From: a virus
Lineage: Duplodnaviria > Heunggongvirae > Uroviricota > Caudoviricetes
Length of the DNA: 21,272 nt
Strand: one strand, 5' to 3'
Virus record (IMG/VR): IMGVR_UViG_2778261501_000004
Coordinates: 1-21,272 of that record
Positions 3,238-11,053 of the stretch are shown piece by piece. Position numbers and translations under genes: made by a program. Position 1 is the first letter of the stretch, and each line of letters starts with the position of its first letter. A model generated the notes under the pieces. It ran no database searches. It was not told the DNA's origin and saw only the letters and a program-made list of their open reading frames with translations.

Positions 3238-3509
3238 GTATTCGTATTGAAATTGGCGAACGTTATGTCGTTACCAGTGACAGCTTTCAGTTTATTCTCC
3301 ACGAGAAAAAGAGAGCGGAAAGCGGTAAAAACGCCGGTCAGGAATGGCTGTCGGTGGTTGGTTATTATCCGAAATTAAGCCAGCTCGTTTCCGGCCTGAT
3401 GCATCACGATATTCTGACCGGAAGCGCAAAGTCTTTTGCTGATTTAAACGCGCAGGTTGAGCAACTCAGCAGGCGTTGTTCAGAGGCTTTTGGCTCATAT
3501 GGCCGTTAA
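3234..3509 (+). CDS. hypothetical early protein (P2 orf83 position)
   Basis: 91-aa ORF; ATGA overlap with the previous stop; synteny only. Confidence 0.5.
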   Translation: MSIRIEIGERYVVTSDSFQFILHEKKRAESGKNAGQEWLSVVGYYPKLSQLVSGLMHHDILTGSAKSFADLNAQVEQLSRRCSEAFGSYGR

Positions 3510-5784
3510 AGCCTCCGGGCGTTTTGTCCCTCCGTCAGCATTTGCCGCAGGCACCGGTAAGGCGTTTACCGGTGCTTATGCATGGAACGCGCCACGCGAG
3601 GCTGTCGGGCGCGAAAGACCCCTTACACGTGACGAGATGCGTCAGGTGCAAGGTGTTTTATCCACGATTAACCGCCTGCCTTACTTTTTGCGCTCGCTGT
3701 TTACTTCACGCTATGACTACATCCGGCGCAATAAAAGCCCGGTGCACGGGTTTTATTTCCTCACATCCACTTTTCAGCGTCGTTTATGGCCGCGCATTGA
3801 GCGTGTGAATCAGCGCCATGAAATGAACACCGACGCGTCGTTGCTGTTTCTGGCAGAGCGCGACCAGTATGCGCGCCTGCCGGGGATGAATGACAAGGAG
3901 CTGAAAAAGTTTGCTGCCCGTATCTCATCGCAGCTTTTCATGATGTATGAGGAACTCTGCGATGCCTGGGTTGATGCACATGGCGAAAAAGAATCGCTGT
4001 TTACGGATGAGGCGCAGGCTCACCTCTATGGTCATGTTGCTGGCGCTGCGCGTGCTTTCAATATTTCCCCGCTTTACTGGAAAAAATACCGTAAAGGGCA
4101 GATGACCACGAGGCAGGCATATTCTGCCATTGCCCGCCTGTTTAACGATGAGTGGTGGACTCATCAGCTTAAAGGCCAGCGTATGCGCTGGCATGAGGCG
4201 TTACTGATTGCTGTCGGGGAGGTCAATAAAGACCGTTCTCCTTATGCCAGTAAACATGCCATTCGTGATGTGCGTGCGCGCCGCCAGGCAAATCTGGAAT
4301 TTCTTAAATCGTGTGACCTTGAAAACAAGGAAACCGGCGAGCGCATCGACCTTATCAGTAAGGTGATGGGCAGTATTTCTAATCCTGAAATTCGCCGGAT
4401 GGAGCTGATGAACACCATTGCCGGTATTGAGCGTTACGCCGCCGCAGAGGGTGATGTGGGGATGTTTATCACGCTGACCGCGCCGTCAAAGTATCACCCG
4501 ACACGTCAGGTCAGAAAAGGCGAAAGTAAAACCGTTCAGCTTAATCACGGCTGGAACGATGAGGCATTTAATCCAAAGGATGCGCAGCGTTATCTCTGCC
4601 GCATCTGGAGCCTGATGCGCACGGCATTCAAGGATAATGATTTACAGGTCTACGGTTTGCGTGTCGTCGAGCCACACCACGACGGAACGCCGCACTGGCA
4701 TATGATGCTTTTTTGTAATCCACGCCAGCGTAACCAGATTATCGAAATCATGCGTCGCTACGCGCTCAAAGAGGATGGAGACGAAAGAGGAGCTGCGCGA
4801 AACCGTTTTCAGGCAAAACACCTTAACCGGGGCGGTGCTGCGGGATATATCGCGAAATACATTTCAAAAAACATCGACGGCTATGCACTGGATGGTCAGC
4901 TCGATAACGACACCGGCAGGCCGCTGAAAGACACTGCAGCGGCTGTTACCGCATGGGCGTCAACGTGGCGCATCCCGCAATTTAAAACGGTTGGCCTGCC
5001 GACAATGGGGGCTTACCGTGAACTACGCAAATTGCCGCGCGGCGTCAGCATTGCTGATGAGTTTGACGAGCGCGTCGAGGCTGCACGCGCCGCCGCAGAC
5101 AGTGGTGATTTTGCGTTGTATATCAGCGCGCAGGGTGGGGCAAATGTCCCGCGCGATTGTCAGACTGTCAGGGTTGCCCGTAGCCCGTCGGATGACGTTA
5201 ACGAGTACGAGGAAGAAGTCGAGAGAGTGGTCGGCATTTACGCGCCGCATCTCGGCGCGCGTCATATTCATATCACCAGAACGACGGACTGGCGCATTGT
5301 TCCGAAAGTGCCGGTCGTTGAGCCTTTGACTTTAAAAAGCGGCATCGCCGCGCCTCGGAGTCCTGTCAATAACTGTGGAAAGCTTACCGGCGGTGATACT
5401 TCGTTACCGGCTCCCACACCTTCTGAGCACGTCGCAGCAGTGCTTAATCTGGTTGATGACGGTGTTATCGAATGGAATGACCCGGAGGTCGTGAGGGCGC
5501 TCAGGAGCGCATTAAAATACGGCCTGAGAACCTCAAACCGTCAGCAAAGAAACGGAAGCCCGTTAAAACCGCATGAAATTGCACCATCGGCCAGACTGAC
5601 CCGGTCGGAAAGAATGCAAATTACCCGTATCCGCGTTGACCTTGCTCATAACGGTATCAGGCCGCAGCGATGGGAGCTTGAGGCGCTGGCGCGTGGCGCG
5701 ACCGTAAATTATGACGGGAAAAAATTCACTTATCCGGTCGCTGATGAGTGGCCGGGATTCTCAACAGTAATGGAGTGGAAATGA
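3499..5784 (+). CDS. rolling-circle replication initiator endonuclease gpA
   Basis: Large ORF; HUH-type motif (TPHWHMMLF) and tyrosine pair (YIAKYISKNIDGY) typical of P2 A-family Rep proteins. Start taken at ATG 3499 (MAVKASGRF...), overlapping the previous gene; the track's longer ORF starts at 3457. Confidence 0.9.
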   Translation: MAVKASGRFVPPSAFAAGTGKAFTGAYAWNAPREAVGRERPLTRDEMRQVQGVLSTINRLPYFLRSLFTSRYDYIRRNKSPVHGFYFLTSTFQRRLWPRIERVNQRHEMNTDASLLFLAERDQYARLPGMNDKELKKFAARISSQLFMMYEELCDAWVDAHGEKESLFTDEAQAHLYGHVAGAARAFNISPLYWKKYRKGQMTTRQAYSAIARLFNDEWWTHQLKGQRMRWHEALLIAVGEVNKDRSPYASKHAIRDVRARRQANLEFLKSCDLENKETGERIDLISKVMGSISNPEIRRMELMNTIAGIERYAAAEGDVGMFITLTAPSKYHPTRQVRKGESKTVQLNHGWNDEAFNPKDAQRYLCRIWSLMRTAFKDNDLQVYGLRVVEPHHDGTPHWHMMLFCNPRQRNQIIEIMRRYALKEDGDERGAARNRFQAKHLNRGGAAGYIAKYISKNIDGYALDGQLDNDTGRPLKDTAAAVTAWASTWRIPQFKTVGLPTMGAYRELRKLPRGVSIADEFDERVEAARAAADSGDFALYISAQGGANVPRDCQTVRVARSPSDDVNEYEEEVERVVGIYAPHLGARHIHITRTTDWRIVPKVPVVEPLTLKSGIAAPRSPVNNCGKLTGGDTSLPAPTPSEHVAAVLNLVDDGVIEWNDPEVVRALRSALKYGLRTSNRQQRNGSPLKPHEIAPSARLTRSERMQITRIRVDLAHNGIRPQRWELEALARGATVNYDGKKFTYPVADEWPGFSTVMEWK

Positions 5785-6227
5785 TGGCAAAAATTCACGA
5801 GGTAAAGCTGCACGCCAAATATTTTGACCTTGTGCTGGAAGGAAAGAAACGCGCAGAGTTTCGGAAAAATGACCGTAATTATGAGCGCGGGGACACGTTG
5901 ATTTTGCATGAATGGGTACAGGGTGTGTATACGGGGCGAAAGGTTGAAGCCCGGATAACAGATGTTACTGACCTGTCAGACTGGCTGGAAGATTATGTCT
6001 TGCTAAGTATTGAGCGGCTTAATACAGGCGCATATGAGATTGTGAACTGGAAAGAACTTAGTGAGCGTGGTCTGGTATTCAGAATTAATCATGAAATTAT
6101 GCATCAGCTCGGCCTTGCTGTTATGTATGAGCCGGAGACGGGGCTGTCTGGCGGGGCAGTGGTTACTGCGGATGGGATATGGAACTATTCAGATGAACAG
6201 GTGGAGCGTACAAAGCAAAACGGGTGA
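5781..6227 (+). CDS. DUF3850/ASCH-like domain protein (cargo)
   Basis: Start overlaps the A stop (ATGATGG). N-terminal 80 aa (KIHEVKLHAKYFDLVLEGKKRAEFRKNDRNYERGDTLILHEW...) resemble the ASCH/PUA-like DUF3850 fold as I remember it; C-terminal half unassigned. Confidence 0.55.
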   Translation: MMAKIHEVKLHAKYFDLVLEGKKRAEFRKNDRNYERGDTLILHEWVQGVYTGRKVEARITDVTDLSDWLEDYVLLSIERLNTGAYEIVNWKELSERGLVFRINHEIMHQLGLAVMYEPETGLSGGAVVTADGIWNYSDEQVERTKQNG

Positions 6228-6442
6228 CTTGGATAATGCACAGAATACCAGGCGAGATACCGCACCATAAAACTAAAAATATCAAGCTGATGGCTATTGT
6301 TCAGCGTTTACAGCGGATTATGGTCAACGAAAATCTGACGCCCGATGAGCTGGTCGGGTGTGCCGAAATAGTCCGGGATAATTACGGGCGGTTTAACCAT
6401 ATCGGTCAATCAAGAGTTACGCCACCACCACGCAGACGATAG
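6224..6442 (+). CDS. hypothetical small protein
   Basis: 72-aa ORF overlapping the previous stop; no recognisable motif; could be non-coding. Confidence 0.3.
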   Translation: MTWIMHRIPGEIPHHKTKNIKLMAIVQRLQRIMVNENLTPDELVGCAEIVRDNYGRFNHIGQSRVTPPPRRR

Positions 6443-6695: not shown

Positions 6696-7634
6696 ATGCC
6701 AACTGTAGTGTCGCTTTTTTCCGGGTGTGGTGGTTCTGATGCAGGAGTCTTGAAGGCTGGGTTTGATGTTCTAATGGCGAATGACATTTTACCTTACGCT
6801 CGTGATGTGTATTTGGCTAACCATCCAGAAACTGATTATGTTTTGGGTGATGTCTCCACTATTGAATCGTTTCCATCTGCTGAACTGCTGGTTGGTTGCT
6901 ATCCCTGTCAAGGTTTTAGCCAAGGTGGAGTTCGAAAAGCTGATAGAAAAATTAATACGCTATACTTAGAGTTTGCAAGAGCTTTAAGAATAGTTAAGCC
7001 AAAAGCGTTCATTGTTGAAAACGTTTCTGGCATGTTGCGAAGTAACTTTGAACATTTGTTGAAAGATCAGTTCAAGGTTTTCGAAGAGGCTGGTTACAGA
7101 GTTAAATCTAAAATTCTAAATGCTTCTCATTTTGGTGTTGCTCAGGATCGTAAGCGCATTTTTATTGTTGGCATACATGAGAGATTTGGAGTTGATTTTT
7201 CGTTTCCAGTCGCGACTCATGGCGAAGGATTGAAAAGAGTGACTACTATCCGTGATGCGATAGGTTCGTTACCGGAATGGCCTGTTGGAGAGTTTTATGA
7301 TGCCGATTTCCATTGGTATTATTTATCAAGAAATCGCCGTCAGGACTGGGATCAAATCTCAAAAACCATAGTTGCTAATCCAAGGCATATGCCTTTACAT
7401 CCAATTAGTCCAACTCTTATAAAGTTAGGTCCAGATAAATGGCAATTTACATCAAATGAACGTGCACGGCGTTTTAGTTTTCGTGAGGCTGCTTATCTTC
7501 AAGGATTTAGTAATTTAGTTTTTCCTGAAACAGAGCGAGCATCCATGAATATGAAATATACAGTTGTCGGAAACGCCGTACCGCCCCCTTTATTCGAAGC
7601 GGTAGCGCGTTCATTACCTGATATTTGGGATTAA
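6696..7634 (+). CDS. DNA (cytosine-5)-methyltransferase
   Basis: 312 aa with canonical C5-MTase motifs in order: I FSGCGG, IV PCQGFS (catalytic Cys), VI ENV (FIVENVSG), VIII QDRKR, X GNAVPPP. AT-rich relative to phage backbone. Confidence 0.9.
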   Translation: MPTVVSLFSGCGGSDAGVLKAGFDVLMANDILPYARDVYLANHPETDYVLGDVSTIESFPSAELLVGCYPCQGFSQGGVRKADRKINTLYLEFARALRIVKPKAFIVENVSGMLRSNFEHLLKDQFKVFEEAGYRVKSKILNASHFGVAQDRKRIFIVGIHERFGVDFSFPVATHGEGLKRVTTIRDAIGSLPEWPVGEFYDADFHWYYLSRNRRQDWDQISKTIVANPRHMPLHPISPTLIKLGPDKWQFTSNERARRFSFREAAYLQGFSNLVFPETERASMNMKYTVVGNAVPPPLFEAVARSLPDIWD

Positions 7635-8560
7635 CTCAACACATAATCCATAGCCACTAAGTCATCAACAAACGTTAGATTGTCTTGGTGGTTTATCTGT
7701 GGATATTTTTTAGTCAGATTTACTAGTCTAAGTCTATCAACAAATATTGCAGCACCAAAATCACTCCTGTGAGCCCAGTCGCGGTTATGCCATCTTAAAT
7801 CTTGTGGAAGAAAATAATATGTTGACCATGGATGTAAGACAGGAAGCAAATTCCACAATTTAGCCGGTGTGGCCTCAAGTTGTTTTGCTACCCATTCAGT
7901 TTTTGAACATCCACATTGAGCAAGAGCAAGAGGTATAGACTCACGATTATCTCCCATATCATGCCAAGCGAGTATATCAATTCCTCCATCTCCCCTGTCA
8001 TTTGGTTTGAAATCTTCAATTGAAAAATTAGCTTTACATCTGAAATCTTGTGCTATTTTAGTTAACTTATCAAAGAGTAAGCCAGTGTAGTGACCTGAAT
8101 TACCTGCGCTAGCCCAACAGTGTTTAACTGTTGCTCCTTCAGGCATGAGGGCTTGAAATATGGGATAGCTTATTTTCTCAAATGCACTTGTAAATATGTC
8201 ACGGTGACTATTTTCTATATATTTTATATTTGCACAGGCTAAGAGTGCTATGTATAGTTTTTCATTTTGATTGTAATCAGCAATATTATGCTTTCTTAAG
8301 AATAATGTGTCTCTGTCATCAGAAAAATAAAAGGGGTAATCATCACCGAAAAGGCTAATTCTTGTGTCAATGAATGTCGCTGCAAAATTCCATTTATCGT
8401 CAGAATACCCGCGTGACTTTGGATTTGCTTGAGACCTAAAGAGGCTTGCTAGATCTCCTCTACTAAAGCATTTGTCTGTATTTACTGTAGCCCATAACTC
8501 TAAATAGTCGCCCCATAAATATGGCTCGTTATCGGGTAATGAGTCCATGTGAAAAATCAT
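7631..8560 (-). CDS. putative nuclease, Mrr-like PD-(D/E)xK signature (cargo, second gene of minus-strand pair)
   Basis: 309-aa ORF; start ATG overlaps the stop of the upstream gene (TAATG); contains NDRGDGGIDILAW followed by a Q-x-x-x-x-K region, reminiscent of the GDGGID core of Mrr-type restriction nuclease domains. 3' end overlaps the MTase stop by about 4 nt. Confidence 0.55.
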   Translation of the reverse strand: MIFHMDSLPDNEPYLWGDYLELWATVNTDKCFSRGDLASLFRSQANPKSRGYSDDKWNFAATFIDTRISLFGDDYPFYFSDDRDTLFLRKHNIADYNQNEKLYIALLACANIKYIENSHRDIFTSAFEKISYPIFQALMPEGATVKHCWASAGNSGHYTGLLFDKLTKIAQDFRCKANFSIEDFKPNDRGDGGIDILAWHDMGDNRESIPLALAQCGCSKTEWVAKQLEATPAKLWNLLPVLHPWSTYYFLPQDLRWHNRDWAHRSDFGAAIFVDRLRLVNLTKKYPQINHQDNLTFVDDLVAMDYVLS

Positions 8561-9639
8561 TATTCATCTTCCTCACGGATGCTTTCAATTTGTTTTTTAA
8601 TTTTACGCGCTATAGATAATATTTCACTCGAACGATATTCGTGATTTTCTGTGAAAGAGTGCGTGTTGAGAAGCATATCCCAAACAACTCTTAGTCGAGA
8701 TTCTGCTTGGTCTAGAGCTTGATCCAAAGCCTCTTCATGACCATTTGTATATAAATAGGCTTCTTCAATGTTTTTAGACTTTATGAGGTTATCTATTGCT
8801 GCTTCATTGGCAACTATTGTTGAAAGATTTTTGATCTTGCGACTTTCACCAATGATAGTATCACCCTGTTGATCTCTAACAAAGAACCAAGCAAAAAGCT
8901 TCTCAAGGTTTTCCTCTTTCAGGTTTTTAGCAGATAAATCTTTTCTATCATCTAAGCCTAACCAGTCTGTAATGTTAGTATATCCAAGAGCTGTTGTTAT
9001 GTAGGAAAAATCGACATCATTCTCACTCATATGCAAATTATAGAAGTTTTTATCAGCAGCGGTTTCATATAATTTGAGTGAAGTTAATAAAAGGCCGACG
9101 TAATAAGATTTACTGCCAATTTCTTTAGCTAATGACTTTAAAAGAGATTCTTTGTCTGCACCTTTGTAGAAAGTTTCACTAAGCTCCTTAAGATACTTAG
9201 CTTTAGAAAGTGCATCCCATTCTTTCACACCAGTAATGTGTCTATATCCGATATAACGTAACACATCTTCACGTCTTGTGTAGACGAGACAAGGTAATTT
9301 AGTCGGTTTATAAGTAGCATCGTCCTGAATTAGTTGAATGCTTTTTTCTTTTCTTTTAGGTGGTAAAAGTTCGCTATTGAGCAACTTTACGGCAGCAAGG
9401 CGACGGTTACCCTCAACTACAACATATTTTTTCCCGGAACTAACCACTAAAAGAGGTTCTCCGGGAAAGTAATCTTGTTCCCCTATGGACAGCATCAAAT
9501 CTTGTACACTTTCGTCATCAAGCATTTCTTCAATGACGGCATTTTCAGATCCAGCCCTATCGTTTAACCGATAGAAACGTGGGTTTTCAGGATCAAACTC
9601 TAGATCTTCCGTGTTTATGTATTTGATTTCGTTGCTCAT
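8560..9639 (-). CDS. ParB/Srx N-terminal domain protein (cargo, first gene of minus-strand pair)
   Basis: 359-aa ORF; residues 1-90 show the ParB N-terminal pattern (DPENPRF ... SIGEQDYFPGEPLLVV ... YVVVEGNRRLAAVKLL, i.e. the GxRR arginine box); remainder predicted helical, unassigned. Confidence 0.65.
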   Translation of the reverse strand: MSNEIKYINTEDLEFDPENPRFYRLNDRAGSENAVIEEMLDDESVQDLMLSIGEQDYFPGEPLLVVSSGKKYVVVEGNRRLAAVKLLNSELLPPKRKEKSIQLIQDDATYKPTKLPCLVYTRREDVLRYIGYRHITGVKEWDALSKAKYLKELSETFYKGADKESLLKSLAKEIGSKSYYVGLLLTSLKLYETAADKNFYNLHMSENDVDFSYITTALGYTNITDWLGLDDRKDLSAKNLKEENLEKLFAWFFVRDQQGDTIIGESRKIKNLSTIVANEAAIDNLIKSKNIEEAYLYTNGHEEALDQALDQAESRLRVVWDMLLNTHSFTENHEYRSSEILSIARKIKKQIESIREEDE

Positions 9640-9830
9640 AATTGTATTCTGCGCAGATATAAGGATGACTTGCTACAGCATAACCTTATGTTTAGCATCT
9701 GTCATTATGATGGCTGCCTTATGCATGATTTTGCATCCATTTTTTATTTTATTTTTTTGGGGGCGCATTAGGCCCGATATGGTTTTTGGAGACGATGCGT
9801 TTGCATCAAAACAGCCCCATGAAGCGGGCG

Positions 9831-9849
9831 GGCGAGGCGGGGAAAGCAC
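9831..9849. other. cos cohesive-end site (P2-type 19-nt sequence)
   Basis: GGCGAGGCGGGGAAAGCAC matches what I recall as the P2 19-nt cohesive end, and sits where cos is expected, between the A-side cargo and the Q/P packaging genes. Confidence 0.6.
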
Positions 9850-9990
9850 TGCGCGCTGGCAGTAGTGCTGATTTTATTTTTTCAGCGTCTGAGCGCGTCG
9901 TGATGGCGTTTAGATTGTGTGCCGGGGCGTTGGTTTGTCTGCGGGCTATTTTGCGCGGAGGTGAGCGTGTGAGGGCGTGATGGCGGGGTG

Positions 9991-10013
9991 TAAAAAAGCC
10001 GCCCGCAGGCGGC
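9991..10013 (-). terminator. rho-independent terminator downstream of Q (leftward late operon)
   Basis: GCCGCC-CGCA-GGCGGC hairpin followed on the minus strand by a T-run (plus-strand AAAAAA at 9992-9997), 6 nt past the Q stop. Confidence 0.55.
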
Positions 10014-10018
10014 GATGT

Positions 10019-11053
10019 TCAGCCGTTGTCAGTGTCCAGTGAGTAGTTTTTAAAGCGGATGACCTCCTGACCGAGCCAGCCGTTTATCTCGCGGATCCTG
10101 TCCTGTAACGGGATAAGCTCATTGCGGACAAAGACCTTTGCCACTTTCTCAATATCACCCAGCGACCCGACGTTCTCCGGCTTGCCGCCCATCAACTGAA
10201 AGGGGATGCGGTGCGCGTCCAGCAGGTCAGCGGCGCTGGCTTTTTTGATATTAAAAAAATCGTCCTTCGTTGCCACTTCACTGAGCGGGATAATTTTTAT
10301 GCCGTCGGCTTTCCCCTGTGGGGCATAGAGAAACAGATTTTTAAAGTTATTGCGGCCTTTCGACTTAACCATGTTTTCGCGAAGCATTTCGATATCGTTG
10401 CGATCCTGCACGGCATCGGTGACGTACATGATGTATCCGGCATGTGCGCCATTTTCGTAATACTTGCGGCGGAACAGCGTGGCCGACTCATTCAGCCAGG
10501 CAGAATTAAGGGCGCTCAGATATTCCGGCAGGCCGTACAACTCCTGATTGATATCCGGCTCCAGCAGGTGAAACACGGAGCCGGGCGTGAAGGCTGTCGG
10601 CTCGTTGAAGGACGGCACCCACCAGTAAACATCCTCCTCCACGCCACGGCGGGTATATTTTGCCGGTGAGGTTTCCAGTCTGATGACCTTACCGGTGGTG
10701 CTGTAACGCTTTTCCAGAAACGCATTACCGAACACCAGAAAATCCAGCACAAAGCGGCTGAAATCCTGCTGGGAAAGCCACGGATGCGGGATAAATGTCG
10801 AGGCCAGAATATTACGTTTGACGTAAATCGGTGAGCTGTGATGCACGGCAGCACGCAGGCTTTTTGCCAGACCGGTAAAGCTGACCGGTGGCTCATACCA
10901 TCTGCCGTTACTGATGCACTCGACGTAATCCAGAATGTCACGGCGGTCGAGTACCGGCACCGGCTCACCAAAGGTGAATGCCTCCATTTTCGGGGCGCTG
11001 GCGGTCATTGTTTTCACCGCTGGCTGCGGTGTTTTCCCTTTTTTCTTGCTCAT
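10019..11053 (-). CDS. portal protein gpQ
   Basis: 344 aa, leftward, start overlaps terminase stop; size and position as P2 Q. Confidence 0.85.
   Translation of the reverse strand: MSKKKGKTPQPAVKTMTASAPKMEAFTFGEPVPVLDRRDILDYVECISNGRWYEPPVSFTGLAKSLRAAVHHSSPIYVKRNILASTFIPHPWLSQQDFSRFVLDFLVFGNAFLEKRYSTTGKVIRLETSPAKYTRRGVEEDVYWWVPSFNEPTAFTPGSVFHLLEPDINQELYGLPEYLSALNSAWLNESATLFRRKYYENGAHAGYIMYVTDAVQDRNDIEMLRENMVKSKGRNNFKNLFLYAPQGKADGIKIIPLSEVATKDDFFNIKKASAADLLDAHRIPFQLMGGKPENVGSLGDIEKVAKVFVRNELIPLQDRIREINGWLGQEVIRFKNYSLDTDNG

Follow-up and report, generated by a model that had tools for sequence, protein, structure and literature searches.

The prophage-borne system PD-λ-5, described as 'ParB/HEPN, methyltransferase', has been validated as a broad-range defence, which its authors view as a compact RM+Abi (Vassallo et al., 2022; PMC9519451). 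Validation also exists for DndI and SspE, proteins in which a ParB-superfamily NTPase and a nuclease are brought together and coupled to a modification module (PMC11662687). The A-to-Q region of P2 is, in turn, an experimentally established defence hotspot (PMC9122126; PMC9519451). Here we compare with these systems a three-gene locus found in a window of 21,272 nucleotides (the whole stretch of DNA that was analysed, from the Caudoviricetes record IMGVR_UViG_2778261501_000004). The middle gene of this locus encodes a 309-aa protein that we consider, on balance, to be probably the DNA-cutting subunit of a restriction-modification (R-M)-like defence cassette of three genes, carried as cargo by a P2-like prophage. 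In the literature on PD-λ-5, the P2 hotspot, Wphi and Mrr-like nucleases with ParB, a description of the ParB-like/nuclease pair was not found.

Gene organisation and genomic setting

The prophage is P2-like and the cassette lies between gpA (3457-5784) and the portal gene (10019-11053), that is, as cargo of the P2 A-to-Q (tin/old) hotspot, with a layout equal to that of Wphi and of E. coli O145:H28 prophages. Its genes and flanking elements are:

6696..7634, plus strand: gene for a C5 DNA cytosine methyltransferase of 312 aa, convergent with the nuclease gene, whose stop codon its own overlaps (TTAA, 7631-7634)
7631..8560, minus strand: putative nuclease gene, an ATG-to-stop open reading frame of 309 aa (winged helix and PD-(D/E)xK domain)
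8560..9639, minus strand: gene for a ParB/KorB-fold partner of 359 aa, directly upstream of the nuclease gene and TAATG-coupled to it
9640..10018, minus strand: intergenic region 5' of the ParB-like gene, probably holding the promoter of the two-gene operon as judged by a consensus scan
9705-9677: consensus-like candidate promoter site of the ParB-like/nuclease operon, from the same type of scan
10013-9998: terminator-like hairpin of the portal gene, bounding the region 5' of the ParB-like gene

A previous sequence-only reading of this DNA had proposed a 309-aa open reading frame with a GDGGID motif at 7631-8560. This was borne out and the gene was placed on the minus strand, the plus-strand frame of 7631-8560 being ruled out as coding by its many stops. 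The string quoted in that reading, NDRGDGGIDILAWHDMGDNRESIPLALAQCGCSK, is an exact match to residues 187-220 (nt 7901-8002), and the TAATG coupling to the stop of the ParB-like gene was likewise found, base 8560 being common to the TAA stop and the nuclease ATG. A GAGGA Shine-Dalgarno sequence is located 9 nt upstream of this ATG. Scans for promoters and terminators near the operon gave a number of sites not above that expected from shuffled sequences. The nuclease gene is translationally coupled to the gene of a ParB/KorB-like protein, an obligate partner of the nuclease, which is encoded directly 5' of it in 64 of 68 species loci.

The GC content of the cassette is 37-40%, against 50-60% in the backbone. 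The trio is found elsewhere too: in phage Wphi (gp98/gp96/mth) and Pseudomonas phage D14A, in Methylotenera, in Pseudomonas glycinae, in a Burkholderiales MAG and, adjoining the repressor, in lambdoid prophages. Among 5,426 complete E. coli genomes, 141 contain the methyltransferase of the cassette, and both loci examined carry the full trio at this prophage hotspot. These data bear on a reading in which the genes are a phage DNA-handling module, i.e., a partition, replication or packaging helper composed of a ParB-like binder and a structure-specific nuclease. Proteins with a ParB fold are commonly found in segregation and the genes are situated between replication and packaging genes. However, most P2-like phages are devoid of the cassette and carry other cargo at the hotspot instead (see also PMC9122126), its GC content is foreign, its positions in lambdoid prophages, in a P2-like phage of Pseudomonas and in bacterial chromosomes are unrelated, and it is tied to DNA-modification genes, and we regard a role of this kind as extremely unlikely.

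Predicted fold and active site of the 309-aa protein

The family of the nuclease comprises at least 2,300 sequence clusters. Neither Pfam, NCBIfam nor PADLOC holds a match to the protein, even at E<=10, and PHROGs matches are to families of 'unknown function' only. In the AlphaFold model (pLDDT 90.6), an N-terminal winged helix precedes a C-terminal PD-(D/E)xK domain with the alpha-beta-beta-beta-alpha-beta core fold of restriction endonucleases, and MspJI, NgoMIV and AspBHI are the closest solved structures in a structural search. Such a search had been put forward as a check with a non-nuclease fold as the adverse outcome, and it is a nuclease fold that the model points to. The N-terminal 200 aa, which had been left unassigned, do contain a separate domain, the winged helix, but this domain ends at residue 110 and the nuclease domain already starts near residue 115. 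The domains and the active-site block, in true residue numbers (the alignment and the structure model were made without Met1 and their numbering is the true residue number minus 1), are:

8231..8560, minus strand: predicted winged-helix domain, aa 1-110, with near-invariant D18, E21, D29, R67 and Y75-P76-F77
7634..8218, minus strand: predicted PD-(D/E)xK domain, aa 115-309, from fold and residue conservation
7883..8002, minus strand: candidate active-site block N187...GDGGID195...Q215CGC...K226, from sequence and family conservation

Along the nuclease domain, a helix with F127-E128 is followed by a strand from D195, a strand ending in Q215-C-G217-C, a helix with K226 and a terminal D275-R276-x-R278. 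Among 142 diverse family representatives, clustered at no more than 50% identity, D195 is conserved in 100%, D191, E128 and Q215 in 99% each, K226 in 98%, and G190 and G193 of GDGGID in 96-99%. Because it is conserved across these 142 relatives, the GDGGID motif is not a chance match. The acidic residue with which strand 2 starts (D195) and the Glu of helix 1 (E128) are those expected of a PD-(D/E)xK enzyme; of the (D/E/Q)-x-K of strand 3, the Gln is kept and the Lys is missing. The canonical Lys position, two residues past Q215, is G217 in this protein, is Ala, Gly or Thr in 136 of the 142 representatives and is Lys in only 3, and the invariant K226 sits on the helix after strand 3, 11 residues past Q215. 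A PDB sequence search with the single protein returned MspJI alone (E=1.3); in this match D195 and Q215 align with MspJI D334 and Q355, and MspJI K357 is at the canonical Lys position. The earlier suggestion of a GDGGID core with a Q/E-x-K-like element about 20 residues on is therefore upheld for the Gln and for the non-canonical nature of the Lys, and fails for K220. This residue (in CGCSK) was ruled out as the catalytic Lys, its position varying between P, E, R, K and A in the family. A catalytic need for the conserved Cys pair (QCxC) is unlikely as well, since one or both of these Cys are substituted in members linked to dnd genes and in those of O145:H28.

By its modelled fold and conserved site, the 309-aa protein, so far without annotation, is predicted to be a DNA nuclease of the restriction type. 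In its predicted active site, E128, D195 and Q215 would bind metal and K226, on the post-strand-3 helix, would replace the canonical Lys. The relocation of an acidic residue is known in Cfr10I/NgoMIV, to which the relocation of the Lys is likened here. The absence of the canonical catalytic Lys (G217 in this protein, Ala/Gly in the family) is an observation that counts against the R-M-like model. It also fits a reading in which the fold has no catalytic activity and the protein acts as an adaptor or a regulator, for instance of the methyltransferase or of the ParB-like protein, the effector being elsewhere, all the more as the Lys is missing throughout the family. Inactive restriction-endonuclease (iREase) domains are common in defence systems (PMC10853773), and Pfam NA-iREase1 is seen among the locus neighbours. 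Nevertheless, E128, D195, Q215 and K226 are 98-100% kept across phyla, which is unexpected in a decayed site, and the three-gene cassette has no other candidate effector, its ParB-like protein being without the HEPN part of PD-λ-5_A. A dead fold thus appears very unlikely.

The sequence-only reading had called the protein a putative Mrr-like nuclease. The PD-(D/E)xK fold and the MspJI/AspBHI relatives agree with this, whereas the protein falls below the Mrr_cat threshold and the Lys of QxK is missing. Mrr_cat (PF04471) gave no match for the nuclease of the window at E<=10 and matched 2 of 29 relatives (best E=0.13), and a PDB search with the family profile found nothing. An hhalign comparison of the 142 family members with 100+ Mrr orthologues, in which the profile of Mrr had little depth (Neff 3.2), gave three short segments that are collinear between the two, FE, GDGGID and VDxxRL, with probabilities of 0.2-14%, and when E. 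coli Mrr alone was compared, profile against profile, the matches were again short and at motif level only. The profile-HMM search that had been advised thus leads to Mrr solely through short motifs, and filing the nuclease under Mrr_cat was rejected for this reason. From the GDGGID...Q-x-K signature of Mrr, the nuclease family has conserved the GDGGID and the Gln and is devoid of the Lys.

Modification genes, ParB-like partner and proposed function

The methyltransferase matches Pfam DNA_methylase (2.9e-60) and M.HaeIII (3e-46), both over the full length, and the best 25 of its 62 PADLOC matches are to DruM, MTase_II and DrmMII models, PD-Lambda-5_B not being among them. A C5 methyltransferase gene adjoins the pair in 55 of the 68 species loci, 42 of these with convergent orientation, and the modal junction is -4 bp. 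Taken with six loci that have dnd genes nearby, the endonuclease gene is linked to a modification gene in the manner of R-M systems. In three loci that are devoid of the methyltransferase (L070, L076 and L077), a convergent dndE-dndD-dndC takes its position, followed by dndB in L076 and L077, and in three further loci (L064, L065 and L079) dndC/dndD are found within 4 kb of the pair. That one family should read both 5-methylcytosine and phosphorothioate is hard to explain and speaks against the R-M-like model. The model is also disfavoured by two loci (L038 and L066) in which the pair has no neighbouring modification gene up to 5 kb away. Between the E. coli O145:H28 prophages and the window, the methyltransferase is 85% identical, the nuclease 26% and the ParB-like protein 30%. 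As judged from these sequences, such divergence seems hard to reconcile with a nuclease that reads the exact target of the methyltransferase and would argue against a strictly shared specificity.

The ParB-like protein matches ParB_N (E=0.0045) and the N-terminus of PADLOC PD-Lambda-5_A (E down to 1e-24), and contains a ParB N-domain fold with the nucleotide-binding motifs box I and GxxR (box II). Its PD-Lambda-5_A match is confined to profile positions 1 to ~160 of models that are 430-500 positions long; the C-terminal half of these models (HEPN) is unmatched and the C-terminus of the partner is a different helical region. An identity with DndB was rejected, as there is no DndB/DGQHR match and a separate genuine DndB is encoded beside the pair in L076 and L077.

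The protein is best read as the nuclease arm of an R-M-like system that would be a relative of PD-λ-5 and an analogue of SspE/DndI. In this R-M-like model, the methyltransferase would mark lysogen DNA, the ParB-like protein would bind DNA in an NTP-dependent manner, as a sensor or clamp, and license the nuclease, and the nuclease would nick or cleave incoming DNA without the mark. A further and more speculative possibility, which we hold only tentatively, is that the ParB-fold protein and the nuclease constitute a modification-agnostic restriction cassette that is joined at the stop codons either to a C5 methyltransferase or to dndE-D-C, that would recognise self by no single chemistry, and in which an NTP-gated clamp, loaded on or released from unmodified DNA, may license a Mrr-derived nuclease with a relocated Lys. 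If so, the pair would define a new mechanistic class of NTP-dependent R-M, distributed over many phyla and invisible to PADLOC 2.0.0, Pfam and NCBIfam.

If the R-M-like model is right, at least 2,300 clusters of 'hypothetical protein' would be the nuclease arm of an undetected R-M-like defence that is present in P2-like and lambdoid prophages and in the chromosomes of many phyla, and an orphan branch of the ParB-CTPase fold would gain a job, the gating of a nuclease. Because the 5-methylcytosine and phosphorothioate modules are apparently exchanged at one junction, the discrimination between self and non-self would be directly testable in a three-gene clone. Cassettes of this type would affect the host range in phage therapy and the transformability by plasmids, and would belong in defence-annotation tools.

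Comparison with known systems

MspJI, AspBHI and Mrr share the fold of the nuclease and are the top structural matches of its model. In the alignment with MspJI, the GDGG(I/V)D strand is matched at the catalytic Asp, as is a Gln ~20 residues on, and E. coli Mrr likewise has an N-terminal winged helix before its nuclease domain in a protein of ~300 aa. With respect to the Mrr clade, the nuclease has Gly/Ala in place of the QxK Lys, an invariant Lys 11 residues past the Gln, and an insertion of ~35 aa that separates the FE helix from the GDGGID strand. Moreover, unlike these modification-dependent enzymes, it is paired with a ParB-like protein and joined genetically to a modification module. The dependence of MspJI, AspBHI and Mrr on modification is the opposite of the logic of a methyltransferase-protected nuclease and speaks against the R-M-like model. 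A type IV enzyme like Mrr/MspJI could be at work, in which the nuclease cuts foreign modified DNA after its recognition by the winged helix or the ParB-like partner, the methyltransferase being a separate self-protection against host restriction. This would agree with MspJI and AspBHI as the best structural and sequence matches, with the architecture and collinear motifs that mirror Mrr, with GmrSD, whose design is also that of a ParB-superfamily NTPase and a nuclease, with the GmrSD or Mrr_cat genes that flank some loci (L065 and L079), and with the independent exchange of methyltransferase and pair. However, type IV enzymes are not normally joined to a modification enzyme, and an Mrr-type gene would be without a cognate methyltransferase, whereas here a C5 methyltransferase gene abuts the pair in 55 of 68 loci, typically with overlapping stop codons, and dndE-D-C is at the same junction in three. 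In addition, a 5mC-dependent nuclease beside a 5mC methyltransferase would be self-destructive unless their specificities differ. We therefore judge a type IV enzyme to be unlikely.

SspE and DndI (with GmrSD/BrxU as the type IV version) resemble the pair in having a ParB-superfamily nucleotide switch and a nuclease beside modification genes, and some members of the nuclease family directly abut dndE-D-C. They differ in that they are one polypeptide and not two, in that their switch is of the DUF262 and not of the classical ParB/KorB kind, and in that their nuclease is a DUF1524 HNH (His-Me) nickase and not a PD-(D/E)xK enzyme; neither the DUF262 (GmrSD_N) NTPase nor the DUF1524 (GmrSD_C) HNH domain of SspE/DndI/GmrSD was found in the ParB-like/nuclease pair. 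SspE and DndI are coupled to phosphorothioation, whereas most members of the nuclease family are 5mC-coupled. In a sensing mode of the SspE/DndI type, the pair would bind modified host DNA. This contact, and not a mere block at the target sites, would set the NTPase state and allow unmodified DNA of an invader to be nicked, and the self mark could be 5mC as well as phosphorothioate. The coupling of the pair to two chemically different modification modules is in line with this, as is its much faster divergence relative to the methyltransferase, expected if the exact sequence of the latter is not read. DndI and SspE lie beside dnd/ssp genes, and their defence is reported to depend on host modification and on the activity of the NTPase (PMC11662687; PMC9646914). 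We consider this mode of sensing rather improbable for the pair.

Returning to the R-M-like model, the likeness to PD-λ-5 consists of the homology between the N-terminal 150-160 residues of PD-Lambda-5_A and the partner, the methyltransferase in the cassette, which here is of the C5-cytosine type, and the compact prophage cargo. In contrast, the ParB protein of PD-λ-5 carries a HEPN (RNase-type) C-terminus, and here a separate PD-(D/E)xK gene, to whose family PADLOC has no match even at E<=10, follows the ParB-like gene; an identity of the cassette with PD-λ-5 was rejected, only the ParB N-domain matching and PD-λ-5_A being ParB/HEPN. With type II R-M, the cassette shares an M.HaeIII-like C5 methyltransferase gene facing a PD-(D/E)xK gene, mobility as low-GC cargo and an endonuclease that diverges faster than the methyltransferase; it differs in its additional ParB-fold protein with nucleotide-binding motifs and in that dnd genes may take the place of the methyltransferase. 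Compared with Cfr10I/NgoMIV/Bse634I/AgeI/SgrAI, with which no sequence similarity was detected, it is apparently the Lys that has moved here and an acidic residue there. If the proposed function holds, PD-λ-5, SspE/DndI and classical R-M would be one design family, which combines a sensor of the ParB type with an effector and a modification module that can each be swapped.

The gene pair and its prophage setting

The window carries a P2-like prophage with integrase, HTH repressor, gpA, portal, large terminase, scaffold gpO and capsid gpN genes, and three further genes are placed between gpA and the portal gene:

3457-5784, replication protein gpA
6696-7634, plus strand (convergent), C5 DNA cytosine methyltransferase (Pfam DNA_methylase, 2.9e-60)
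7631-8560, minus strand, 309-aa winged-helix and PD-(D/E)xK protein, putative nuclease
8560-9639, minus strand, 359-aa ParB-like protein, directly upstream of the 309-aa gene
10019-11053, portal protein

This interval is the tin/old position of P2, a known hotspot for anti-phage systems (PMC9122126; PMC9519451), and the low GC content of the cassette (37-40%, versus 50-60% for the phage backbone) matches the expectation for exchanged cargo. A phage DNA-handling function for the 309-aa protein is disfavoured by this foreign GC content, by its patchy distribution and by its varied genomic contexts.

The ORF proposed by the sequence-only reading at 7631-8560 exists: it runs for 309 codons from ATG to stop on the minus strand, the plus strand has no open frame over the same positions, and the string quoted there, NDRGDGGIDILAWHDMGDNRESIPLALAQCGCSK, is found at residues 187-220 of the translated protein. 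The proposed start/stop coupling to the ParB-like gene was also borne out, as the TAA stop and the ATG have base 8560 in common (TAATG), and the GAGGA ribosome-binding site of the 309-aa gene sits within the last codons of the ParB-like gene. The convergent methyltransferase gene was absent from that reading. Its stop codon and that of the nuclease gene overlap by 4 bp in a palindromic TTAA (7631-7634), which leaves no space for a terminator between the two genes, and convergent transcription may set the nuclease to methyltransferase ratio. Directly after the portal gene stop, a GC-rich hairpin with a T-run behind it (9998-10013, minus strand) separates the cargo cassette from the conserved late operon, so that the cassette probably has a putative promoter of its own in 9640-9997.

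The gene directly after gpA (5748-6227, plus strand) has a 159-aa product that is similar to P2 orf91 and contains DUF3850/ASCH (PUA-like) and DUF7415 domains. [quoted passage not shown] Between this gene and the methyltransferase gene lies a 72-aa ORF with a GTG start (6224-6442, plus strand) and no Pfam match, whose counterpart is a small hypothetical protein in the same place in the E. coli PSS-08-2, Wphi (gp92) and O145:H28 prophages.

The nuclease family and its relation to Mrr

Searches of Pfam, NCBIfam and PADLOC gave no match to the 309-aa protein, PHROGs gave only two, both of unknown function, and an identical protein in E. coli is labelled 'hypothetical protein'. A profile search of 1.84 billion representatives assigns 2,314 clusters to the family at E<=1e-3, of which 595 reach E<=1e-30; among the 150 best, almost all are ~300-370 aa long and match over the full length. 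Conservation was measured in 142 diverse family representatives and is numbered with Met1 as 1, the alignment and the AlphaFold model being shifted by -1. In the nuclease domain the conserved residues are E128, D191, G193 and Q215 (99% each), D195 (100%), C216 (94%), C218 (97%), W223 (95%) and K226 (98%); D275, R276 and R278 are each 100% conserved, and outside the domain D18, E21, R67, P76, F77 and Y103 reach 97-100%. The protein combines a nuclease fold with a conserved putative active site. The missing canonical lysine would favour a dead nuclease fold serving as an adaptor, but the 98-100% conservation of E128, D195, Q215 and K226 and a cassette that holds no other effector argue against it.

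The Q-C-x-C at the putative catalytic Gln (segment 215-226, nucleotides 7883-7918), conserved at 94-97% across most of the family, is replaced by Q-S-A-A or Q-C-A-T in members linked to dnd genes and by Q-C-G-A in the O145:H28 allele. This variation suggests that the Cys pair may be a subfamily-specific feature, perhaps a metal or redox site, outside catalysis.

The proposed likeness to Mrr stands in a loose sense, since the protein has Mrr-clade enzymes as its closest relatives of known structure and an architecture similar to that of E. coli Mrr, but it fails as formal family membership. The Mrr_cat HMM does not match the protein, and profile-profile comparison with Mrr orthologues recovered the FE helix, GDGGID and VDxxRL as three collinear motifs, at a statistically weak probability of at most 14%. 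E. coli Mrr has GDGGID...QAK, whereas the QxK lysine is missing from the 309-aa protein, whose downstream E/Q-x-K is non-canonical, as had been remarked. Moreover, Mrr, MspJI and AspBHI are modification-dependent (partly by RefSeq product name), whereas the 3' end of the 309-aa gene is joined to a methyltransferase gene.

Linkage to exchangeable modification modules

The ParB-like and nuclease genes with a convergent C5 methyltransferase gene recur across many settings: at the same hotspot of phage Wphi (gp98, gp96 and mth), elsewhere in the genome of a Pseudomonas P2-like phage, in Methylotenera, next to the repressor in P. glycinae and in a metagenomic lambdoid prophage, and in a Burkholderiales MAG. 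In the MAG, a gene for a 1,037-aa, type IIG-like N6 methyltransferase is inserted between the nuclease and C5 methyltransferase genes; this insertion in Burkholderiales (L006/L030, 6182-9295, and L029) suggests a second restriction-modification enzyme stacked inside the cassette.

With one genome taken per species, the scan found 68 loci in Pseudomonadota, Bacteroidota, Chloroflexota, Acidobacteriota, Armatimonadota, Verrucomicrobiota and Campylobacterota, all ORFs of which were scored by phmmer; these species representatives and about ten other loci, out of a larger family, make up the neighbour census. In 64/68 loci the ParB-like gene immediately precedes the nuclease gene on the same strand, the exceptions being three contig ends and one truncated copy. 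The nuclease is in obligate synteny, with translational coupling, with a ParB-fold protein that retains nucleotide-binding motifs. A C5 methyltransferase gene is present in 55 of the 68 loci; it is convergent in 42, while 10 have it downstream on the same strand and 3 have it upstream, and the commonest junction with the nuclease gene is the 4-bp, stop-on-stop overlap of the window.

Of the 13 loci that lack a C5 methyltransferase gene, five are cut by contig ends and six have DNA phosphorothioation genes; only L038 and L066 have no modification gene within 5 kb. In three of the six, from marine and Campylobacterota genomes (L070, 4977-9403; L076, 1-10628; L077, 3854-10816), convergent dndE, dndD and dndC (identified, like DndB, by Pfam or NCBIfam) take the place of the C5 methyltransferase gene, the junctions ranging from -4 to +62 bp and the -4 bp one reappearing with dndE in L070; dndB comes next after dndC in L076 and L077. 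In the other three (L064, L065 and L079), dndC/dndD lie no more than 4 kb from the pair. This recurrent, near-obligate linkage means that the pair is a unit attached to an exchangeable DNA-modification module, carried in the window as cargo of a defence hotspot. The structural neighbours would favour a type IV, modification-dependent enzyme beside an unrelated methyltransferase, but most loci show the stop-on-stop linkage and dnd genes can substitute at the same position, both of which speak against this.

The L076 pair has dptH and a phosphorothioate-DNA-binding restriction endonuclease gene on one side and the dnd operon on the other. In two Campylobacterota (L065, 2138-7354; L079, 2164-6727), the pair has dndC/dndD a few kb away and stands between a GmrSD type IV enzyme and a protein of the HEPN_Swt1 or HARE-HTH/Mrr_cat kind. 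Such dense islands of defence genes mix modification-dependent and modification-coupled nucleases.

Across loci the nuclease diverges fastest and the methyltransferase slowest, with the ParB-like protein intermediate (nuclease/ParB-like/methyltransferase identity to the window of 43/53/71% in Methylotenera and 49/65/84% in Wphi). Among 5,426 complete E. coli genomes, 141 match the query region, one with an identical cassette and 140 with the methyltransferase only, at ~77% nucleotide identity. The one examined of these 140 diverged loci, O145:H28 RM12581 (5094-8130, against 6696-9639 of the window), has the same hotspot and three-gene layout, with 85% identity in the methyltransferase but only 26% in the nuclease and 30% in the ParB-like protein. 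This implies that modules were swapped or that the restriction pair has diverged very fast. Either strong diversifying selection acts on the pair, or it recombines independently of the methyltransferase, and both readings are awkward for a nuclease that needs the exact target sequence of the methyltransferase.

The methyltransferase aligns over its full length, target-recognition region included, with M.HaeIII (GGCC; 3e-46), and its best PADLOC scores among the matches listed are to DruM models. If methylation is GGCC-type, the McrBC/Mrr enzymes of K-12-type hosts would have the cassette DNA as a substrate, as noted for PD-λ-5.

Proposed mechanism and precedents

We consider it fairly probable that the methyltransferase marks the DNA of the lysogen, and that the ParB-like protein, as an NTP-dependent DNA sensor or clamp, would license nicking or cutting of unmarked invading DNA by the winged-helix/PD-(D/E)xK protein. 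Modification might simply block attack, as in classical restriction-modification, or modification of self-DNA might be sensed in the style of SspE and DndI.

The components (PD-(D/E)xK nuclease, ParB fold and C5 methyltransferase), the overall restriction-modification-like logic and prophage hotspot cargo are already known. Our literature search found no published description of the ParB-like/nuclease pair, and PADLOC 2.0.0, Pfam and NCBIfam all lack the nuclease family. What appears new is a two-protein putative restriction unit with a non-canonical active site and interchangeable coupling to 5mC or phosphorothioate modules. SspE and DndI are validated combinations of a ParB-superfamily NTPase, a nuclease and a modification module (PMC9646914; PMC11662687), and PD-λ-5 is the precedent for a ParB module, an effector and a methyltransferase carried together by a prophage.
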